From sequence record PV287714.1: 64,000 nt of DNA. One strand, given 5' to 3'. A program made the position numbers and the translations under genes. Every line of letters begins with the position of its first letter. Position 1 is the stretch's first letter. Shown one piece after another: positions 56,210 through 64,000 of this stretch. Source of the DNA: Escherichia phage HMD-9. The notes under the pieces are model-generated. The model had not been told where the DNA came from and searched no databases. It saw nothing but the letters and a program-made list of their open reading frames with translations.

Positions 56210-56413
56210 CTATAACACAACATGAGGGACTTGTAAACTACATTTTGAACTTTTTAGTACGCGTAATAGGCATGCGTCGATTTTATACTGTTTCATTGTT
56301 TGAAGAGCAGTATCAAAAACAGCATTAATGACACCAATTGGATTTCCACCCATGTTTTTAAGCTTAACTAATGATAGTTTCTCATTAACACCTATCATTA
56401 CGATATGCATCAT
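56210..56413 (-). pseudogene. alt N-terminal duplicate, distal fragment (homologous to Alt residues about 65-120)
   Basis: MMHIVMIGVNEKLSLVKLKNMGGNPIGVINAVFDTALQTMKQYKIDACLLRVLKS aligns with Alt MMHIVPFTLTAKGSIAKLKGLGPSPINYINSVFTVAMQTMRQYKIDACMLRILKS. Confidence 0.6.
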
Positions 56414-56595
56414 TTTATCGCCCGGCTTAACGTTTTATTCGTATCACCGCCAGAGGTGTATGTACAAAATCTAAATCCAGGAAGCACACTTTCTTCACCG
56501 GCTTGAATAGCAAAAATTTGAGGTATTTTATGCTTAGGATTTAAGTTAACAACCGGCGCCGAAGCGCCGTCAAATAATTCTGTAATAAGTTCCAT
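56410..56595 (-). pseudogene. alt N-terminal duplicate, proximal fragment (homologous to Alt residues about 2-60)
   Basis: MELITELFDGASAPVVNLNPKHKIPQIFAIQAGEESVLPGFRFCTYTSGGDTN aligns with Alt MMELITELFDENTTLPITNLYPKKKIPQIFSVHVDDAIEQPGFRLCTYTSGGDTN; frame breaks exactly at the MMHIV junction. Confidence 0.6.
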
Positions 56596-56598
56596 GAT

Positions 56599-58647
56599 TT
56601 ATCCTTGAACAAACTTGTAAGGCATGTTTGCAATATCTATGCAAGACGCAATAATTCCAAGAGATGATTCTGCTTTCTGTTTAACATTTGATGAAACAAA
56701 CGATGCAAAGTCAACTCTATCTTCTATATCACCTGTCATTGTAACCAATTCACCAGTTTCCATTAAACGGTCACCGTCATAAATTACCGATTCGGTGAGT
56801 TCTTCTGTGGTCATAACTTCAGCTTGAATAAGCTTGTTGTTAGTTCTAATTGTTCCATCGTTGTAAGATGCATCAGTTATTTTATTAACTTTGACCATTA
56901 ATCCACGTGGCAAAATGACTTCCATTTCATTTGAAGGCGCTAAACTTCCACCGGGTAAAACAACATTGACCTTATCAGCCCCAGTAATAACCCATCCAAT
57001 TCCAACTAAATTATCGCTAGAATTTACAAGTCCTTCATCAGTTTTATCAATAGAAACACTTAAACGCTTTTCGTCTGGTAAAACACCCACAGATGAATCA
57101 GTCATCCAAGTACCAAAAATATTTGGATATAATGATGTTGACACAAAGTTTCTAAAATAAAAAACTCGATTTTTTACCATTGCTTCGTATATTGAAGGTA
57201 ACATTCGTTGTGAACGATACAAAGTAATACCTTTTGGTAATCGTTCACCATTTTTAAAGGCTGAATCTAAATTATCAATGGCTTGTTCTATTTCAGGTGC
57301 TGTTAAAATACTTGTACGCTCATCTGGATTATATAATCCCAAAAGAGCATTATTCATGTCTACATATCCTGAACCTACATATTCACGAATTCCGCGTTTT
57401 TGCGCTGGTGTGTATTTAGATGAATCTTTATTTTCGACTATAGGATGTAATGACCATCCAGCGGTAAGAGCATATCCACGTAATTCTCTTCGAATAATCT
57501 TTGTTTTTATTGCATTCCAAGAATTTTGTACTAACTCATTTGCAGCATCTTGGTTTAAATGCGAATGTCTGTTAATATTTCTTTCAAACCAAGCACCTTT
57601 ATATTTTTCTAAAGTATCATCGACGATAGAAGCAATAGTTTCTAAAGTTTTTATTGAAGTAATAGATTCTTTTCGTAATTTTTCTAAAGCTTTATTTTTT
57701 ATTTCTGCATTAATAATGGATTCTTTATCTTCAGGAATTATAGAAGCTTCTCTGAATGCCATCCCAGCTGTAACACTGCTAAGAGCATTCTCTAATGCAA
57801 ATCCTGAAGTAGAAATAACAGTTAATTCGTTAGCATCAGAAATTAAAGGCGCGTCGGCGGGTTTATTTAATTCTGCTGCTGAAGCCTCAAATTTTTGAAA
57901 CATTGGTGTTTCAAATCTAGAAGATTCCAATGACTGACTTTGTGCAATTGCTCTACGGGAAATTTTAACTTTAACAATAACAGCTTGGTCAGAACGCTTA
58001 TCATTTTCTTGCGCAATAGATGCAGCAATTGCCTCATTTTTAGTTACTTGAGCTCCAGTATCTTTATTGATATAAACATCACCGACCTTCGATTCAACTT
58101 TAGTAAAGAGCTCGGTGCTAATTTCCGGAACTCCTGGAATGTCTTCTAGTGATACATTTTTGCGATGTATAAGAATATATGCATACTTTTTATCGTAATC
58201 CCAGAGTTCCTTAAGAAGGACGTATCTGCCGCCTGAACGACTGCGGATAAGTCTATCAGCAATAACTTGAATTTGTCGAGCTTGACCAGCAGTTTTAGAC
58301 TTAAGAATACGAAGCATGCAGGCATCAATTTTATACTGACGCATCGTTTGCATCGCAACAGTAAAAACTGAATTGATGTAATTAATTGGGCTTGGACCGA
58401 GACCTTTTAATTTAGCAATTGAACCTTTAGCAGTTAATGTAAAAGGAACGATGTGCATCATTTTATCGCCCATCTTTAAATCACGGTTAGTATCACCTCC
58501 AGATGTATAAGTACATAAACGAAAGCCTGGTTGTTCTATTGCGTCATCAACATGAACTGAAAAAATTTGTGGTATTTTCTTCTTTGGATACAAATTTGTA
58601 ATCGGAAGAGTAGTATTTTCGTCAAATAATTCTGTAATAAGTTCCAT
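56599..58647 (-). CDS. alt: Alt ADP-ribosyltransferase (packaged, injected)
   Basis: 682-683 aa (tandem ATG at 58650/58647); size and position upstream of gene 30 match T4 alt. Confidence 0.88.
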   Translation of the reverse strand: MELITELFDENTTLPITNLYPKKKIPQIFSVHVDDAIEQPGFRLCTYTSGGDTNRDLKMGDKMMHIVPFTLTAKGSIAKLKGLGPSPINYINSVFTVAMQTMRQYKIDACMLRILKSKTAGQARQIQVIADRLIRSRSGGRYVLLKELWDYDKKYAYILIHRKNVSLEDIPGVPEISTELFTKVESKVGDVYINKDTGAQVTKNEAIAASIAQENDKRSDQAVIVKVKISRRAIAQSQSLESSRFETPMFQKFEASAAELNKPADAPLISDANELTVISTSGFALENALSSVTAGMAFREASIIPEDKESIINAEIKNKALEKLRKESITSIKTLETIASIVDDTLEKYKGAWFERNINRHSHLNQDAANELVQNSWNAIKTKIIRRELRGYALTAGWSLHPIVENKDSSKYTPAQKRGIREYVGSGYVDMNNALLGLYNPDERTSILTAPEIEQAIDNLDSAFKNGERLPKGITLYRSQRMLPSIYEAMVKNRVFYFRNFVSTSLYPNIFGTWMTDSSVGVLPDEKRLSVSIDKTDEGLVNSSDNLVGIGWVITGADKVNVVLPGGSLAPSNEMEVILPRGLMVKVNKITDASYNDGTIRTNNKLIQAEVMTTEELTESVIYDGDRLMETGELVTMTGDIEDRVDFASFVSSNVKQKAESSLGIIASCIDIANMPYKFVQG

Positions 58648-58670
58648 CATATCCTCTCTAGTGTTTATTC

Positions 58671-58678
58671 TATTTATA
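58671..58678 (-). promoter_or_regulatory. T4 late promoter TATAAATA for alt
   Basis: reverse-complement TATAAATA about 20 nt upstream of the alt start. Confidence 0.5.
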
Positions 58679-58701
58679 AAATTAAAGGCCCGAAGGCCTT
58701 T
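58674..58701 (-). terminator. UUCG hairpin AAAGGCC-UUCG-GGCCUUU at the end of ORF 58700-58888
   Basis: 7-bp stem with UUCG loop on the minus transcript, overlapping the stop codon and followed by an A/U-rich tract. Confidence 0.5.
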
Positions 58702-58888
58702 AATAATCTAATGGTAAGAGAGTACGATATATTTCAAACTTTGGCCCTTTTTCATAGGCATCAAATGTTTCTGAAAATTTATTATAAGCATATGCATCTA
58801 CAAATTCGAGAATGATTTGTGATACAGAAGTAGAAACATCTCCACCTTCTTTTTGAGCAACGACAATTGTTTCTAAGTAAGCTTTCAT
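58700..58888 (-). CDS. hypothetical small protein, ATGA-coupled to DNA ligase
   Basis: 62 aa ORF. Confidence 0.5.
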   Translation of the reverse strand: MKAYLETIVVAQKEGGDVSTSVSQIILEFVDAYAYNKFSETFDAYEKGPKFEIYRTLLPLDY

Positions 58889-60348
58889 AGACCAGTTACC
58901 TCATGAAAATCACCAAATACATCCTCGAATGTATTAGCTTTAGTTTTATCTTCACGTAAACGAATCGCAATCGGAAGAAATAATTTAACGTAATCAGTGC
59001 GGCCATCAGATTTTAACCAACCATTGCATTCGCACTCTAGAATTTTTCCAATATAATAATTTTGGTTTTCCATAATGCGAGTACGGTCAAGTTCATGCGA
59101 TTTTACACCGGCTTTATCTTTTAAGCCTGAACCAGCATTTACTTTAATTTTTCCACACTCTGACTCAAGAATAAATCCACCTGCTTTAGTAGGGTCTTTA
59201 CGGTGAGGATAAATTCCTACAATTTTTAAATCAACATCAATTACTTCTTTAAATTTATAGAGATTTTTTGAACGAGCATTTTCCCATAATCCATCGATAT
59301 TTTTGAGAATAATACCTTCAAGACCTTGGTCAATATACTTTTTATAAATTACCTTAGCTTCATCTAGGTTATTTACTACCTGGTTTTCAATTAAAATTAC
59401 TTTATCATAGCCTGATGTCATTTGTTCTAGTTTAGAAAAACGTACATCATATTTCAAACGAAATGCAGGAAGACCGTATATTTCTACCAACGGGACATAA
59501 TCCCAGACCTGAAACTTCATGCATTGAGCTTCTTTTTCAGAAATGGTTCCCTTTAAAGATTTATTGGCGATGCCATTAGATGCAGTACGTGATTCAGCTA
59601 CTTCTGTGAAGTCTTTAACTTTGCTGTTTCCAGGATGAGCATCAAAAAGAAAATCTAGGCCTTCTGGCTCCTTTTTAACTTGCTCGTGGTATACCAATTC
59701 GCCATCAATTAACACACCTTCTGGATGAATCTGGCGGGCTTCAGCAGTCATTTTGATTAACTCTTCCTTAAGAAGATCTAATCCTAGATATTCATTACCA
59801 GCTCGTGATAAAAGACGAACATCATCTAATTCATCACCTCGGACTTCAGCAAAACACCGAGCTCCATCTGCTTTTAACTGTGCAAAGGCTGGAAACTTAA
59901 TATTCTTATTAATGCCTTTTTCATCATAAGAACTTGCCAGCATTTGAGGTTGTTCAGGAATTAAACCTGGCCAAACTTTGTTTGCAATAGATACTGAAGC
60001 ACCGCATTCAAGGTCTCGCATCATAACTCGACGCAAAACTTCAACATCATCCTTTTTACCATCAGTGATATATCCAGTCAATTCCTCAATTGCAGCATTT
60101 CCAGTCAATTTCCGAGTAGCTAATGTGAATTCAATGAAGTCAAGCATATCGGTAAGAGTCAACATTCCAAAACTCTGGGTAGTAATACCAGGTTTAGGCC
60201 ATTTCTTGATATAATACTGCAACCCACGAGAATAAGTCAGACGATATACTCGTTTAAGCAATTCATTATCTTTATTCTTTTCAAGAATTGCTTGCTTCTG
60301 CTTAGTTGAACCAATAGATGCTATTTCGTTCAGAATTTTAAGAATCAT
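58885..60348 (-). CDS. 30: gp30 ATP-dependent DNA ligase
   Basis: 487 aa; adenylation lysine motif KADGAR; size matches T4 gp30. Confidence 0.95.
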   Translation of the reverse strand: MILKILNEIASIGSTKQKQAILEKNKDNELLKRVYRLTYSRGLQYYIKKWPKPGITTQSFGMLTLTDMLDFIEFTLATRKLTGNAAIEELTGYITDGKKDDVEVLRRVMMRDLECGASVSIANKVWPGLIPEQPQMLASSYDEKGINKNIKFPAFAQLKADGARCFAEVRGDELDDVRLLSRAGNEYLGLDLLKEELIKMTAEARQIHPEGVLIDGELVYHEQVKKEPEGLDFLFDAHPGNSKVKDFTEVAESRTASNGIANKSLKGTISEKEAQCMKFQVWDYVPLVEIYGLPAFRLKYDVRFSKLEQMTSGYDKVILIENQVVNNLDEAKVIYKKYIDQGLEGIILKNIDGLWENARSKNLYKFKEVIDVDLKIVGIYPHRKDPTKAGGFILESECGKIKVNAGSGLKDKAGVKSHELDRTRIMENQNYYIGKILECECNGWLKSDGRTDYVKLFLPIAIRLREDKTKANTFEDVFGDFHEVTGL

Positions 60349-60614
60349 TATTCATCCTTCAGAGTTTGGTTTACAGCTCTATTATAAATCAATTCATCAT
60401 TAAGCTCAGTCAAAGACTTATGATATGTGGTTCTAACTTTATTTCCTTGCATCCAGTGCTTGATATAAATGAAACCTTGCTCTACACATTTTTTAAAAAT
60501 TCGTTCGTCTTTTTGAGCTCGGAACTCTGGATTGCATCTAAAAAATTGATTTACGTGACCGTAATCACGTGTAGTATTACCTTCATTTTCATAAATAGTG
60601 TGAACAACAAACAT
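60348..60614 (-). CDS. hypothetical protein (30.1 position)
   Basis: 88 aa ORF. Confidence 0.55.
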   Translation of the reverse strand: MFVVHTIYENEGNTTRDYGHVNQFFRCNPEFRAQKDERIFKKCVEQGFIYIKHWMQGNKVRTTYHKSLTELNDELIYNRAVNQTLKDE

Positions 60615-61477
60615 TAGAATGCTCCTTGAAAAATATTATCACCACTAGTAAGTCTATTAAAATACCCTGCGTCGCCAGGCTTAATATAACTCCACGTGTG
60701 GAATGGATTCATATGATACGGGTGTGTATAATATGGATTATATGGATGTGTATAATATGGATGATATGGATTTAATCCAGGCGTTCTCCAAGTAGTGTTC
60801 CAAGGAAAAGAATCGTTTTTAACCATCTTCTCAATTACATCTTTTATAGCTTTTTCACTATCAAAACTTTCTTTATTTTCCTTTGGTGAAAAAAGCTTAT
60901 TCTCTACATCGTTCCATGTATAAACTCGCTGTGCAGTTTTTGGAATACTGTCACGCTCTCCTCGAGCCATCCAATAAACTGGAACATTTAATATTTCACT
61001 CGCGTGATCGCAGTGGTGAGCGAGATCATCAATATAACAAATTACGTTATATTTCTCTTTTGCCTTTTTGAACAACTCTTCTTTTGAAGAATCATGACCA
61101 CACATCAGTACTTCTGAAAAGGCACCAGGAAAAAGAGCATTCAAATTAAATTGACGATTCAGCAGAGCGTCAATAGAATCACCCAGTGCTGTAACAGCTA
61201 CAAAATTATAATCTTCTTTTAATTTGTTAATTACACACAGAGCATCTTTATATGGAGACAAATAACGAATAAAATCTGATCGATTATATTTTTCAATTAA
61301 CTTGACACCAAGTTCTTCATCACAATTAAAGAGTTTACCCGGAGAAATAAATTTCTCATCTTGGATCATTTTTAAAATATGTTCTAACGGAAGATTATAT
61401 TTCTGAGCAAAATAAGGAAGGCCTGATTGCCAGCTTAAACATACTCCATCAATATCAGTCAAAATAGTTGGCTTCAT
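60614..61477 (-). CDS. HAD-superfamily hydrolase-like protein with C-terminal His/Pro/Tyr repeat (30.2 position)
   Basis: 287 aa; motif I LTDIDGV, motif II VAVTA, motif IV YIDD..D; C-terminal NPYHPYYTHPYNPYYTHPYH. Confidence 0.6.
   Translation of the reverse strand: MKPTILTDIDGVCLSWQSGLPYFAQKYNLPLEHILKMIQDEKFISPGKLFNCDEELGVKLIEKYNRSDFIRYLSPYKDALCVINKLKEDYNFVAVTALGDSIDALLNRQFNLNALFPGAFSEVLMCGHDSSKEELFKKAKEKYNVICYIDDLAHHCDHASEILNVPVYWMARGERDSIPKTAQRVYTWNDVENKLFSPKENKESFDSEKAIKDVIEKMVKNDSFPWNTTWRTPGLNPYHPYYTHPYNPYYTHPYHMNPFHTWSYIKPGDAGYFNRLTSGDNIFQGAF
60724..60771. repeat. 24-nt tandem duplication x2 inside the 30.2-like ORF
   Basis: GTGTATAATATGGATTATATGGAT then GTGTATAATATGGATGATATGGAT (one mismatch); in frame, encodes the HPY repeat. 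Confidence 0.8.
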
Positions 61478-61938
61478 AGAGAGTCTCTTAATAGGTTTAA
61501 CACATCAATAAATTCAGCTTCGGTTAGTATTGTATCATCTTTTGTTAGACCACTAGCCATGCTGTGCTTCAAAACTTTTCCTTTCGAGGCTTGTAATGCA
61601 TCACGAAAGCCCCTGTTTTGGATCGCTGCTTCAAAATATGCATTTGTATATAATTCTTTCCACGCCGGGGAGTATCTTGAAAACGGAACTCCAAGCCAAA
61701 AGAGGGTCCCACGGTCCTGAGCTCTAGCATAAGATCGTCCAGCTTGTCGGGCGGCAAGCCCGGATAACCCAAATATGCGTCTTTGCTGTTCAACATTTTT
61801 CACCTTACACCCTTGGAGGAATCCTTCGAGACCTCCAAATTGAATACCATCCATAACGAAAGGCCATTGGGCGAAATTACTTAATGCACATGATGGCCAT
61901 TTAAAATTGCTTCTTATCTCTAGCTCAGACATTTTCAA
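61474..61938 (-). CDS. NADAR/YbiA-like (DUF1768-type) protein (30.3 position)
   Basis: 154 aa; LSNFAQWPFVMDGIQFGGLEGFLQGCKV and SGLAARQAGR resemble YbiA FSNFAAWPIKVDGKTWPTSEHYFQAQKF and SPMVAARMGR, aligned from memory only. Confidence 0.55.
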   Translation of the reverse strand: MKMSELEIRSNFKWPSCALSNFAQWPFVMDGIQFGGLEGFLQGCKVKNVEQQRRIFGLSGLAARQAGRSYARAQDRGTLFWLGVPFSRYSPAWKELYTNAYFEAAIQNRGFRDALQASKGKVLKHSMASGLTKDDTILTEAEFIDVLNLLRDSL

Positions 61939-62131
61939 TACTTATAATTTCAACATCAGCCCAATGACCATAGCAAGGAAGACGAAATTCAACTGGCCAG
62001 TTAGGGTCCTTTTCTAATATAATAGACTGAACTTGTGGCTCTTCATGTTCATCGGTATACGGACCTTTATACGTTACTTTATATGTGACCTTAATGTACT
62101 GAATTCCAAAAATCTTATTAATTATATTCAT
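61925..62131 (-). CDS. hypothetical protein
   Basis: 68 aa ORF in the 30.x block. Confidence 0.5.
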   Translation of the reverse strand: MNIINKIFGIQYIKVTYKVTYKGPYTDEHEEPQVQSIILEKDPNWPVEFRLPCYGHWADVEIISIENV

Positions 62132-62325
62132 ATTAATTCCTTTAATCCATAGATAGGAGATAATTCATCACCCATACGAAGGTCTTCATTTCCATCTACC
62201 CAGGAAACAATATAAGCCTCTTTTATTTGAATACCACTCCATTTAAATGGAGGTAGAACCTTAGAAATTAATCCAGGTATACCAACTCCCTTTAATTCAA
62301 CAGTTTGACCCGAAAAGAATTTCAT
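62128..62325 (-). CDS. hypothetical protein
   Basis: 65 aa ORF, ATGA-coupled. Confidence 0.5.
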   Translation of the reverse strand: MKFFSGQTVELKGVGIPGLISKVLPPFKWSGIQIKEAYIVSWVDGNEDLRMGDELSPIYGLKELI

Positions 62326-62612
62326 TAGAACCTCATCTGAAAACCATGCGATTTAACATTACCGCCGCCAATATCAGAAATGTTAATTTCGCGCGCAATT
62401 GAAGGGTCAATGTCAATTTCACGATTGAGTTTAGTGATAGCTAAAGTATCACGTCCATTTACAGTACGGAACTCTAAAGGGCAGACTACATTAACGTAGT
62501 TTTTAATCGATTCACTGGTAGGTTGCAAATGAGCAGGAAGGTCTTTAGGTGCCTTAGAGAAAACCACTTCACAGAAATTTTTGCGGGTATCAAAATAAGT
62601 AGTCATAAACAT
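62325..62612 (-). CDS. hypothetical protein
   Basis: 95 aa ORF. Confidence 0.5.
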   Translation of the reverse strand: MFMTTYFDTRKNFCEVVFSKAPKDLPAHLQPTSESIKNYVNVVCPLEFRTVNGRDTLAITKLNREIDIDPSIAREINISDIGGGNVKSHGFQMRF

Positions 62613-62629
62613 AGTATTTTCCTCAGTAA

Positions 62630-62643
62630 GGGGCCGAAGCCCC
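62630..62643. repeat. GC hairpin GGGGCCGAAGCCCC, copy 3 of 3
   Basis: identical 14-mer to 2889-2902 and 43312-43325; lies between two minus-strand ORFs. Confidence 0.6.
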
Positions 62644-62653
62644 TCATTTTATT

Positions 62654-63019
62654 TTAAATATCAAATTCGTTAAGAACTACATCAAAGATCGCTTCAAGAT
62701 GCTCAGGTTTAGCTCTGTTACTCAGAATATGACGAATCCAAGTTTTAACCAGAAGCTTACGATTGACGCCATTCCAGCAAGGATGAGTACCTAAATCGCG
62801 TTGACGAAAATCATCATCTAATGCGATTTTAAAAGAAGAACCTTCTTTCGTGATTGAAACCGTGATGCCATTTTCAAATCGCATATAAACGTAGTTAGGA
62901 GTCATATACTGTTCAATTTCGCATATTGATCCATTTTGGTGTTTCCAAAGGCAGATAGTATCAATAGAACCTGCAATACCGTTAGAAACATATTTACGTT
63001 CAAAGTTGATGTAGTTCAT
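62654..63019 (-). CDS. hypothetical protein
   Basis: 121 aa ORF. Confidence 0.55.
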   Translation of the reverse strand: MNYINFERKYVSNGIAGSIDTICLWKHQNGSICEIEQYMTPNYVYMRFENGITVSITKEGSSFKIALDDDFRQRDLGTHPCWNGVNRKLLVKTWIRHILSNRAKPEHLEAIFDVVLNEFDI

Positions 63020-63087
63020 TTTTATTCTCCGAGATGTTTAATTGCGGTACAGGTATATAATATCATATCCTGTACCAAAGTAAACAA

Positions 63088-63420
63088 TTATTTTACTACT
63101 TTCCAGTGCTGCATGTCAAGTTTACCAACTTTTTTCATCTTCTCAATTAAGCGTTCGGCACGTTGGCGAGCTGTAACATAATACCATTCACCCAATTCAT
63201 TTTGTTCAATTTTTCCAACGATTACTGTATTCAATTCATAAATCCAACCAGTAAAGAAATTATGAACTTGGATTGTAAAGGTGAAATCTGTTCCCATACC
63301 TTCTGTTGTTTCTACTTCAATAATATCACCTTCAACTGCCATTAAGAACCACATAGTTTCATCATATTTACCATTGAAGCATTTAGTTTTAACTGTGGCG
63401 TTCAGATTAATCGTTTTCAT
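63088..63420 (-). CDS. hypothetical protein
   Basis: 110 aa ORF with SD GGAGAATAAA before ATG. Confidence 0.55.
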   Translation of the reverse strand: MKTINLNATVKTKCFNGKYDETMWFLMAVEGDIIEVETTEGMGTDFTFTIQVHNFFTGWIYELNTVIVGKIEQNELGEWYYVTARQRAERLIEKMKKVGKLDMQHWKVVK

Positions 63421-63447
63421 TTTATTCTCCTTTGTTTGTGTAAGATA

Positions 63448-63477
63448 ATACTATCACAAAGGAACTATACTGTAAAC
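63448..63477 (-). promoter_or_regulatory. T4 early-type promoter (GTTTAC-N18-TAGTAT)
   Basis: minus-sense -35 GTTTAC and -10 TAGTAT with 18-nt spacer upstream of ORF 63088-63420. Confidence 0.45.
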
Positions 63478-63496
63478 AACTTTATGCAATCTTTGG

Positions 63497-63525
63497 AAAA
63501 TAAAAAAGGACTCCCGAAGGAGTCC
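63497..63525 (-). terminator. rho-independent terminator (UUCG hairpin plus U-run)
   Basis: minus-sense GGACUCC-UUCG-GGAGUCC followed by UUUUUUAUU. Confidence 0.65.
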
Positions 63526-63530
63526 TCAAC

Positions 63531-63749
63531 TTATGCTTTCTGCTTACCAAAACGAGAAGCATCATCTCGAAGAACCGCACGTGCTCGGCGCATGATCTTC
63601 TCAACAGTTTGATTGATACGAGAGTTCGACCCACGCTTGTAACCAGCGCGTTTAGAATCACCAACTTTCTTTTCAACTGCTTTCTTTGCTTTAGCTTGTT
63701 TTGCCATTATAAATTCTCTTTTAAATGAAAATGCAGGACTTATTGGCAT
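63531..63749 (-). CDS. small basic protein (30.9-like position); start uncertain (63749 or 63707)
   Basis: 72 aa ORF, Lys/Arg-rich (MAKQAKAKKAVEKKVGDSKRAGYKRGS..). Confidence 0.45.
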   Translation of the reverse strand: MPISPAFSFKREFIMAKQAKAKKAVEKKVGDSKRAGYKRGSNSRINQTVEKIMRRARAVLRDDASRFGKQKA

Positions 63750-63901
63750 TGCCTGCGCAGGCCCTCAAGGGGAACATAGGTTTTGAGTATTTACCGACAG
63801 GATAACCATAAACCTCGTCAACATTCAAGAGGTACACCGTAAAACAAAGTTCGACGGCTCCTCGATTTTAGCTCACACTAAGGCAGTGACTCTCCAATAA
63901 A

Positions 63902-64000
63902 TTACTTCAGTGTTACCACAAAGTGACGAACTGCTTTTCGTGCGGCAGAAGCCAGAGGCTTAGCATACTTAAGTTCATCTTTTTCCTGGAGCTCAGCGGC
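63902..64000 (-). CDS. 3' end of a gene continuing beyond the window (rIII-like position)
   Basis: open frame on minus strand ending at TAA 63904-63902; ..AAELQEKDELKYAKPLASAARKAVRHFVVTLK*. Confidence 0.3.
   Translation of the reverse strand, partial: AAELQEKDELKYAKPLASAARKAVRHFVVTLK

Follow-up and report, generated by a model that had tools for sequence, protein, structure and literature searches.

The minus-strand gene at 61474..61932 of the window (the whole stretch of 64,000 nucleotides of Escherichia phage HMD-9 DNA, record PV287714.1, that was analysed) is, as judged from its sequence and gene order, the orthologue of T4 gene 30.3 (adfN) and a member of the PF08010/AdfN family and the NADAR superfamily. 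Its reading frame is intact, its catalytic residues are conserved and its product has the NADAR fold. The gene very probably encodes an ADP-ribosylglycohydrolase of this fold that defeats the toxin-antitoxin defence system DarTG1. Publications from 2023 to 2025 already describe the fold, enzyme activity and anti-defence role of this family, and no new biology is added here.

Reading frame and catalytic residues

The list of open reading frames contains a minus-strand frame at 61474..61938, which was counted as 154 residues from a TTG codon in the initial annotation, and both motifs quoted there, LSNFAQWPFVMDGIQFGGLEGFLQGCK and SGLAARQAGR, are present in its translation. The frame itself is real, but its start is to be placed at the ATG at 61932, in agreement with the starts of T4 and its relatives, which gives a coding sequence of 152 residues (61474..61932, minus strand) consisting of a phage-type NADAR domain only. 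The 459-nt gene is annotated from this ATG in both T4 and Escherichia phage 236Ecol005PP, and the ATG is further favoured because no other start agrees with the published numbering of E36 and K43. By the same annotations and residue numbering, the two extra codons of the longer frame, TTG AAA (61933..61938, minus strand), are probably not translated.

Numbered from the ATG, the catalytic residues Glu36 and Lys43 are encoded by GAA at 61825..61827 and AAG at 61804..61806 (minus strand), respectively, and correspond to the residues mutated in T4 AdfN (PMC11257639). His123, which marks the phage (gp30.3) subfamily of NADARs (PMC11543638, PMC11125620), is encoded by CAC at 61564..61566 (minus strand). 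In the two alignments of the gp30.3 family that were examined (A1 and A2), E36 and H123 are invariant and K43 nearly so, with full conservation in A1 and conservation of at least 90% in A2. The C-terminal α-helix (residues 138–151; 61480..61521, minus strand) is intact, as seen in the AlphaFold2 model and by comparison with RB69 and T4. The gene overlaps both of its neighbours on the minus strand. Its stop codon shares the sequence ATGA with the start codon of gene 30.2 (61474..61477), and its first 8 nt (61925..61932) also belong to the end of gene 30.4, the latter overlap being the same in T4.

The window, T4 and 236Ecol005PP all have an open internal, out-of-frame ORF of 75 residues (61569..61796, minus strand, in the window), which is annotated in T4 as 30.3′. 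Identity of the window ORF to the T4 copy is only 87%, compared with 97% for adfN, and RB69 carries a stop within the frame; given this lower conservation and the RB69 stop, 30.3′ is probably not a genuine gene. A scan of 58600..64000 for sigma-70 promoters and terminators gave a result that does not stand out from shuffled sequence, with 20 promoter-like sites where 18.4 were expected.

Orthology to T4 gene 30.3

The product aligns with T4 gp30.3 (NP_049816) from the ATG start with 148 of 152 residues identical (97%) and no gaps. It matches Pfam family PF08010 (Phage_30_3, 'Bacteriophage protein GP30.3') over model positions 1–138 of 138 with an E-value of 1.4e-69 and a score of 232.6 bits, the curated cut-off being 36 bits, and it also matches phrog_652 (PHROG 652; E=4.9e-51). 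Homologues were located by tblastn in 1510 phage records. The full-length PF08010 match and this number of homologues place the frame at 61474..61938 far beyond a chance ORF. Among the phage records listed, the gene is nearly always labelled 'hypothetical protein', and is called 'YbiA-like' in one record only.

The source phage is a Tequatrovirus (T4-like). Identity to T4 is 95.6% over the final 9 kb of the window, and the 2.4 kb around adfN are 98.3% identical to 236Ecol005PP, the closest phage in that stretch. The T4 gene order (alt.-3, alt.-2, alt.-1, alt, alt.1, 30 (ligase), 30.1, 30.2, 30.3 and 30.4 through 30.8) is retained, such that the gene corresponds to T4 gene 30.3 both in sequence and in its position between 30.2 and 30.4. 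The two proteins are of equal length and share their genomic position, gene overlaps, E36, K43 and H123, and the intact C-terminal helix. They differ by four conservative substitutions (K11, R62, R106 and M125 here; R, Q, K and I in T4), all at non-catalytic positions that vary within the family.

Assignment to the NADAR fold

The initial annotation had proposed a NADAR/YbiA fold from the quoted motifs and suggested a search against PF08719 (NADAR). The single gp30.3 sequence did not reach PF08719 in a Pfam search, and NCBIfam and PADLOC scans of the same sequence for NADAR gave no match. A phmmer search of the PDB with the single sequence retrieved E. coli YbiA (2b3w) only at E=1.4. The resulting alignment covers the motif in question (LSNFAQWPFVMDG...EGFLQGCK here and FSNFAAWPIKVDG...EHYFQAQK in YbiA), and the conserved catalytic Glu and Lys of the E..FQ..K helix are present, with EGFLQGCK aligned to EHYFQAQK.

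The single-sequence scans having found nothing, the assignment relies on family profiles and structure. A profile search collected 6038 relatives of gp30.3 at E≤1e-3. When 44 diverse family members were compared individually with PF08719, 20 matched (best E=2.8e-7). The best PDB match of the profile built from these 44 sequences is YbiA (E=0.0042), and alignment of the family profile with YbiA by hhalign gave a probability of 94% with E=1.4e-7 over 137 columns. The AlphaFold2 model calculated from the family alignment is confident (mean pLDDT 94.7, pTM 0.89) and, as compared by Foldseek, displays the alpha+beta fold of NADAR proteins. This family-level evidence is decisive for gp30.3 as a NADAR-fold protein. 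The proposed fold is thus supported, with a profile match to NADAR/YbiA and a model of the expected fold both found, although the Pfam match is obtained for the relatives and not for the single sequence, and the resemblance to YbiA is real for the family but weak for the individual protein.

Function of T4 AdfN and comparison with related proteins

By means of phage crosses, Johannesman, Carlson and LeRoux showed that gene 30.3 of T4 and T2 lets T-even phages escape DarTG1, and renamed it adfN, for anti-DarT factor NADAR (PMC11257639; bioRxiv 2024, cited as Nat Commun 2025 16:1598). Deletion of adfN rendered T2 and T4 about 10^4-fold (four logs) sensitive to DarTG1, ectopic T4 AdfN rescued RB69 from DarTG1 but its E36A and K43A mutants did not, and the purified protein stripped ADP-ribose from DarT1-modified DNA; DarTG2 was not countered (PMC11257639). 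Cihlova et al. (2024) reported that T4 gp30.3 hydrolyses guanine-ADPr in vitro and leaves thymidine-ADPr untouched (PMC11125620). In a T4 transposon screen (HIDEN-SEQ preprint, 2025), adfN insertions disappeared on DarTG1 hosts alone (10.1101/2025.11.20.689424), and plain K-12 can be infected without the gene (PMC11257639; 10.1101/2025.11.20.689424). T4 gp30.3 is accordingly described as a DNA ADP-ribosylglycohydrolase specific for guanine, both necessary and sufficient for resistance to DarTG1. Uninfected E. coli is not protected from DarT1 by T4 AdfN (PMC11257639, PMC11125620), which is fully active only during T-even infection, and its discoverers allowed for another required phage factor (PMC11257639). 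The initial annotation had proposed a candidate counter-measure to ADP-ribosylation-based host defence, and had named DarTG-carrying hosts for its test; this agrees with the experimental identification of the 97%-identical T4 orthologue as AdfN (PMC11257639, PMC11125620, 10.1101/2025.11.20.689424). The protein of this phage would be expected to behave as its T4 counterpart does, in removing ADP-ribose from guanine and in conferring resistance to DarTG1.

Phage NADARs were described by Schuller et al. (2023), citing the 2012 classification of de Souza and Aravind, as a subfamily in which a histidine replaces the third catalytic acid (PMC11543638); this position is His in phage gp30.3 NADARs, Glu in YbiA-type and Asp in DarT1-associated proteins (PMC11543638, PMC11125620). 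gp30.3 works like the antitoxin DarG1 (BC4488 family), but the window gene is an orphan, flanked by 30.2 and 30.4. A DarT1 gene next to adfN was looked for and not found, the only nearby ADP-ribosyltransferase (ART) gene being alt (PF03496). In contrast to DarG1 proteins such as the Geobacter lovleyi NADAR (8bat, 219 residues), gp30.3 comprises the core only (152 residues) without the N-terminal extension, and has His123 in place of the catalytic Asp of DarG1; T4 AdfN is no substitute for DarG1 in uninfected cells (PMC11257639, PMC11125620). The N-glycosidase YbiA of E. coli (2b3w) shares about 19% sequence identity with gp30.3 and has Glu at the position of His123. Its gene, located in the rhlE-ybiA-dinG-ybiB region, has a housekeeping role, and the protein gives no protection against DarT1 in vivo (PMC11125620). 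With His123 in place of this Glu, gp30.3 does not belong to the YbiA family of riboflavin-intermediate N-glycosidases. The Phytophthora nicotianae NADAR (8bau, a complex with ADP-ribose) is eukaryotic, contains 189 residues, is 18% identical to gp30.3 and shares with YbiA the Glu at the third catalytic position.

Escape from DarTG is the common purpose of AdfN and of the other anti-DarTG factors AdfA, NADAR-Bas32, NADAR-Bas60 and AdfM/tk.4. NADAR-Bas32 and NADAR-Bas60 use the same chemistry as AdfN, but belong to other NADAR clades and are active in uninfected cells too; AdfA, unlike AdfN, is non-enzymatic and binds DarT1, and AdfM/tk.4 is a macrodomain directed against DarTG2, which modifies thymidine (PMC11257639; 10.1101/2025.11.20.689424).

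PF08010 proteins also stand alone in bacterial chromosomes, as on a 995-kb contig of Bacteroides sp. (L010:6001-6444) and a 290-kb contig of Limnocylindrales (L011:6001-6447). Neither of these two members has an ART gene beside it, and their neighbours are housekeeping genes. A longer version of 287 residues is found on a 364-kb contig (L013:6001-6864) that is jumbo-phage-like (RecA, RNA polymerase, RNase III).

Gene neighbourhood

The packaged ADP-ribosyltransferase gene alt (56599..58650, minus strand; PF03496 E=2.4e-33; product 98% identical to T4 Alt) ends 2.8 kb downstream of adfN, consistent with the distance of about 3 kb given initially. DNA ligase (gene 30; 58885..60348) had been described as a direct neighbour, but genes 30.1 and 30.2 intervene; the HAD-like hydrolase that does adjoin adfN is gene 30.2. 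Two short ORFs at 56210..56595 (minus strand), alt.-2 and alt.-1, are about 55–61% identical to the N-terminus of Alt and go back to an old partial duplication recorded in the T4 annotation.

The block of alt, ligase, 30.2 and 30.3 is retained in the T4-like Acinetobacter phage Konradin. In more distant phages, the adfN homologue is found among tRNA genes (Klebsiella phage Mineola), near ribonucleotide reductase (Aeromonas phage AS-gz), between capsid genes and a helicase gene (Rhizobium phage RHph_I46) or downstream of rIIA/rIIB (Shewanella phage Thanatos-2), and alt, ligase and 30.2 are absent within 5 kb of it in all four. Because the linkage is lost in these four distant phages, the neighbourhood of adfN reflects inherited T4 gene order and not a functional cluster. 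A functional adfN/alt operon is rejected for the same reason, and the proximity to alt, from which the initial annotation had argued, carries little weight.

Gene 30.2 (60614..61477, minus strand) is identified as encoding a HAD-like hydrolase by phrog_420, by its invariant residues and by PF00702 matches of its homologues. Residues D8, D10, G11, T96, K132 and D151 (DxDG at residues 8–11) are invariant in nine homologues and include all four HAD motifs (D8/D10, T96, K132, D151); PF00702 is matched by three of the nine (best E=1.1e-4), and one matches the 5′-nucleotidase family NT5C. Alignment of gp30.2 with T4-type polynucleotide kinase by hhalign was not significant, and a single-sequence AlphaFold model of gp30.2 (pLDDT 37) was not used. 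The HAD-like character of gp30.2, the ATGA overlap with adfN and a nearly identical spread among phage records (1452 for 30.2 and 1510 for adfN) make it a candidate helper of AdfN. A two-enzyme clean-up module, in which gp30.2 would assist AdfN or process the released product, is nevertheless very unlikely. In phages with adfN elsewhere, 30.2 still adjoins DNA ligase, which speaks against a functional module of the two genes; from this persistent linkage, the evidence hints at a role of gp30.2 in nucleotide or DNA-end metabolism. The C-terminal tail of gp30.2 (about 60640..60760, minus strand) is a His/Pro/Tyr-rich repeat, NPYHPYYTHPYNPYYTHPYHMNPF, of low complexity and variable length. The tail exceeds that of T4 by 10 residues, differs again in RB69 and is absent from the Acinetobacter phage homologue.

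Natural alleles of adfN

The adfN gene of RB69 (L003) contains a T insertion that is found neither in T4 nor in the window copy. The insertion creates a TGA codon and shortens the product to 137 residues, removing the last helix, and this makes the RB69 allele inactive. The window and RB69 genes are 88.7% identical in DNA sequence, with the differences mostly at third codon positions. The last 100 nt of adfN (61474..61573) differ from RB69 at only three positions, including the RB69 insertion, and the first 100 nt of 30.2 (61378..61477) are 93% identical, compared with 69% for 30.2 overall. This near-identity at the adfN/30.2 junction may reflect either recent recombination at this site or constraint on the junction.

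Broken natural alleles are numerous, and occur among P0007, P0013, P0014, P0015, P0019, P0021, RB69 and AS-gz. In AS-gz (L006:5001-5450), an in-frame stop lies just ahead of the last helix of adfN, and in vB_Eco_NR1 and P0014 the sequence switches between the 30.3 and 30.3′ reading frames. A deletion in P0013 fuses the N-terminus of 30.7 to the C-terminus of adfN, and in RPN226 (P0021) the N-terminus of 30.8 is fused likewise. The SV76 gene lacks the N-terminal 43 residues, E36 and K43 included. Loss of adfN thus seems to be recurrent in the variable 30.3–30.9 region.

Alternative functions

Two other functions were weighed against the anti-DarTG1 role. gp30.3 could erase or balance the activity of the ADP-ribosyltransferases that the phage itself encodes (Alt, ModA and ModB), for example by reversing protein or RNA modifications. 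The location of alt on the same strand and the conservation of the alt–ligase–30.2–30.3 block in the T4-like Acinetobacter phage are in line with such a role, but the homologues of Mineola, AS-gz, RHph_I46 and Thanatos-2 have none of alt, ligase and 30.2 within 5 kb, and the phenotype of the adfN deletion is specific to DarTG1 hosts, the gene being dispensable on plain K-12 (PMC11257639; 10.1101/2025.11.20.689424). Moreover, the demonstrated substrates of NADAR proteins are base-linked ADP-ribose groups on nucleic acids; the annotation of Alt, by contrast, is that of a protein ADP-ribosyltransferase specific for arginine. A role in countering Alt, ModA and ModB is thus highly improbable, and the partnership with the phage's own ADP-ribosyltransferases that the initial annotation had offered as a second option lacks support and does not fit the DarTG1-specific phenotype. 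Scarcely any more credible is an action on small molecules, either soluble immune signals derived from ADP-ribose or, as a YbiA-like N-glycosidase, intermediates of the riboflavin pathway. The fold is shared with YbiA, an annotated N-glycosidase; however, the Glu that defines the YbiA family is replaced by His, and for the T4 protein both activity on ADP-ribosylated DNA and the DarTG1-specific phenotype are documented.

A wider range of AdfN, extending to guanine-ADP-ribose on RNA or to undescribed guanine-targeting toxins, would add to the anti-DarTG1 role without excluding it, and is possible, if less likely than a range confined to that role. In vitro, guanosine-ADPr on RNA is also a substrate of the T4 NADAR, which hydrolyses it more weakly than the E. 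coli C7 NADAR does (PMC11833690); the T4 enzyme further acts on G-ADPr made by ScARP (PMC11125620, PMC12945103). The family is also very large, with the 6038 proteins noted above, and the members checked on bacterial chromosomes have no ART neighbour. On the other hand, the phage NADAR is not among the enzymes listed as reversing cytidine-ADPr (PMC12945103).

Proposed mechanism and implications

According to the favoured explanation, defence against DarTG1, infection of a DarTG1 host would lead to ADP-ribosylation of guanine bases of the phage DNA by the DarT1 toxin, and replication would be blocked. AdfN would then hydrolyse the N-glycosidic guanine-ADP-ribose bond with Glu36, Lys43 and the subfamily residue His123, and replication would be restored on the cleaned DNA. 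AdfN would in this way act as an orphan type-IV antitoxin, one that reverses the damage without binding the toxin.

The window copy contains E36, K43 and the C-terminal helix, lacks the T insertion of RB69 and ends in ...LLRDSL as in T4. From these features, this adfN copy looks functional. The gene can be given a firm functional annotation. With an intact adfN, the phage should plate on DarTG1-carrying E. coli, unlike phages with RB69-type alleles. Database annotation of the gene lags behind the AdfN papers, and annotation of adfN would be useful for host-range prediction and for the choice of therapeutic phages.
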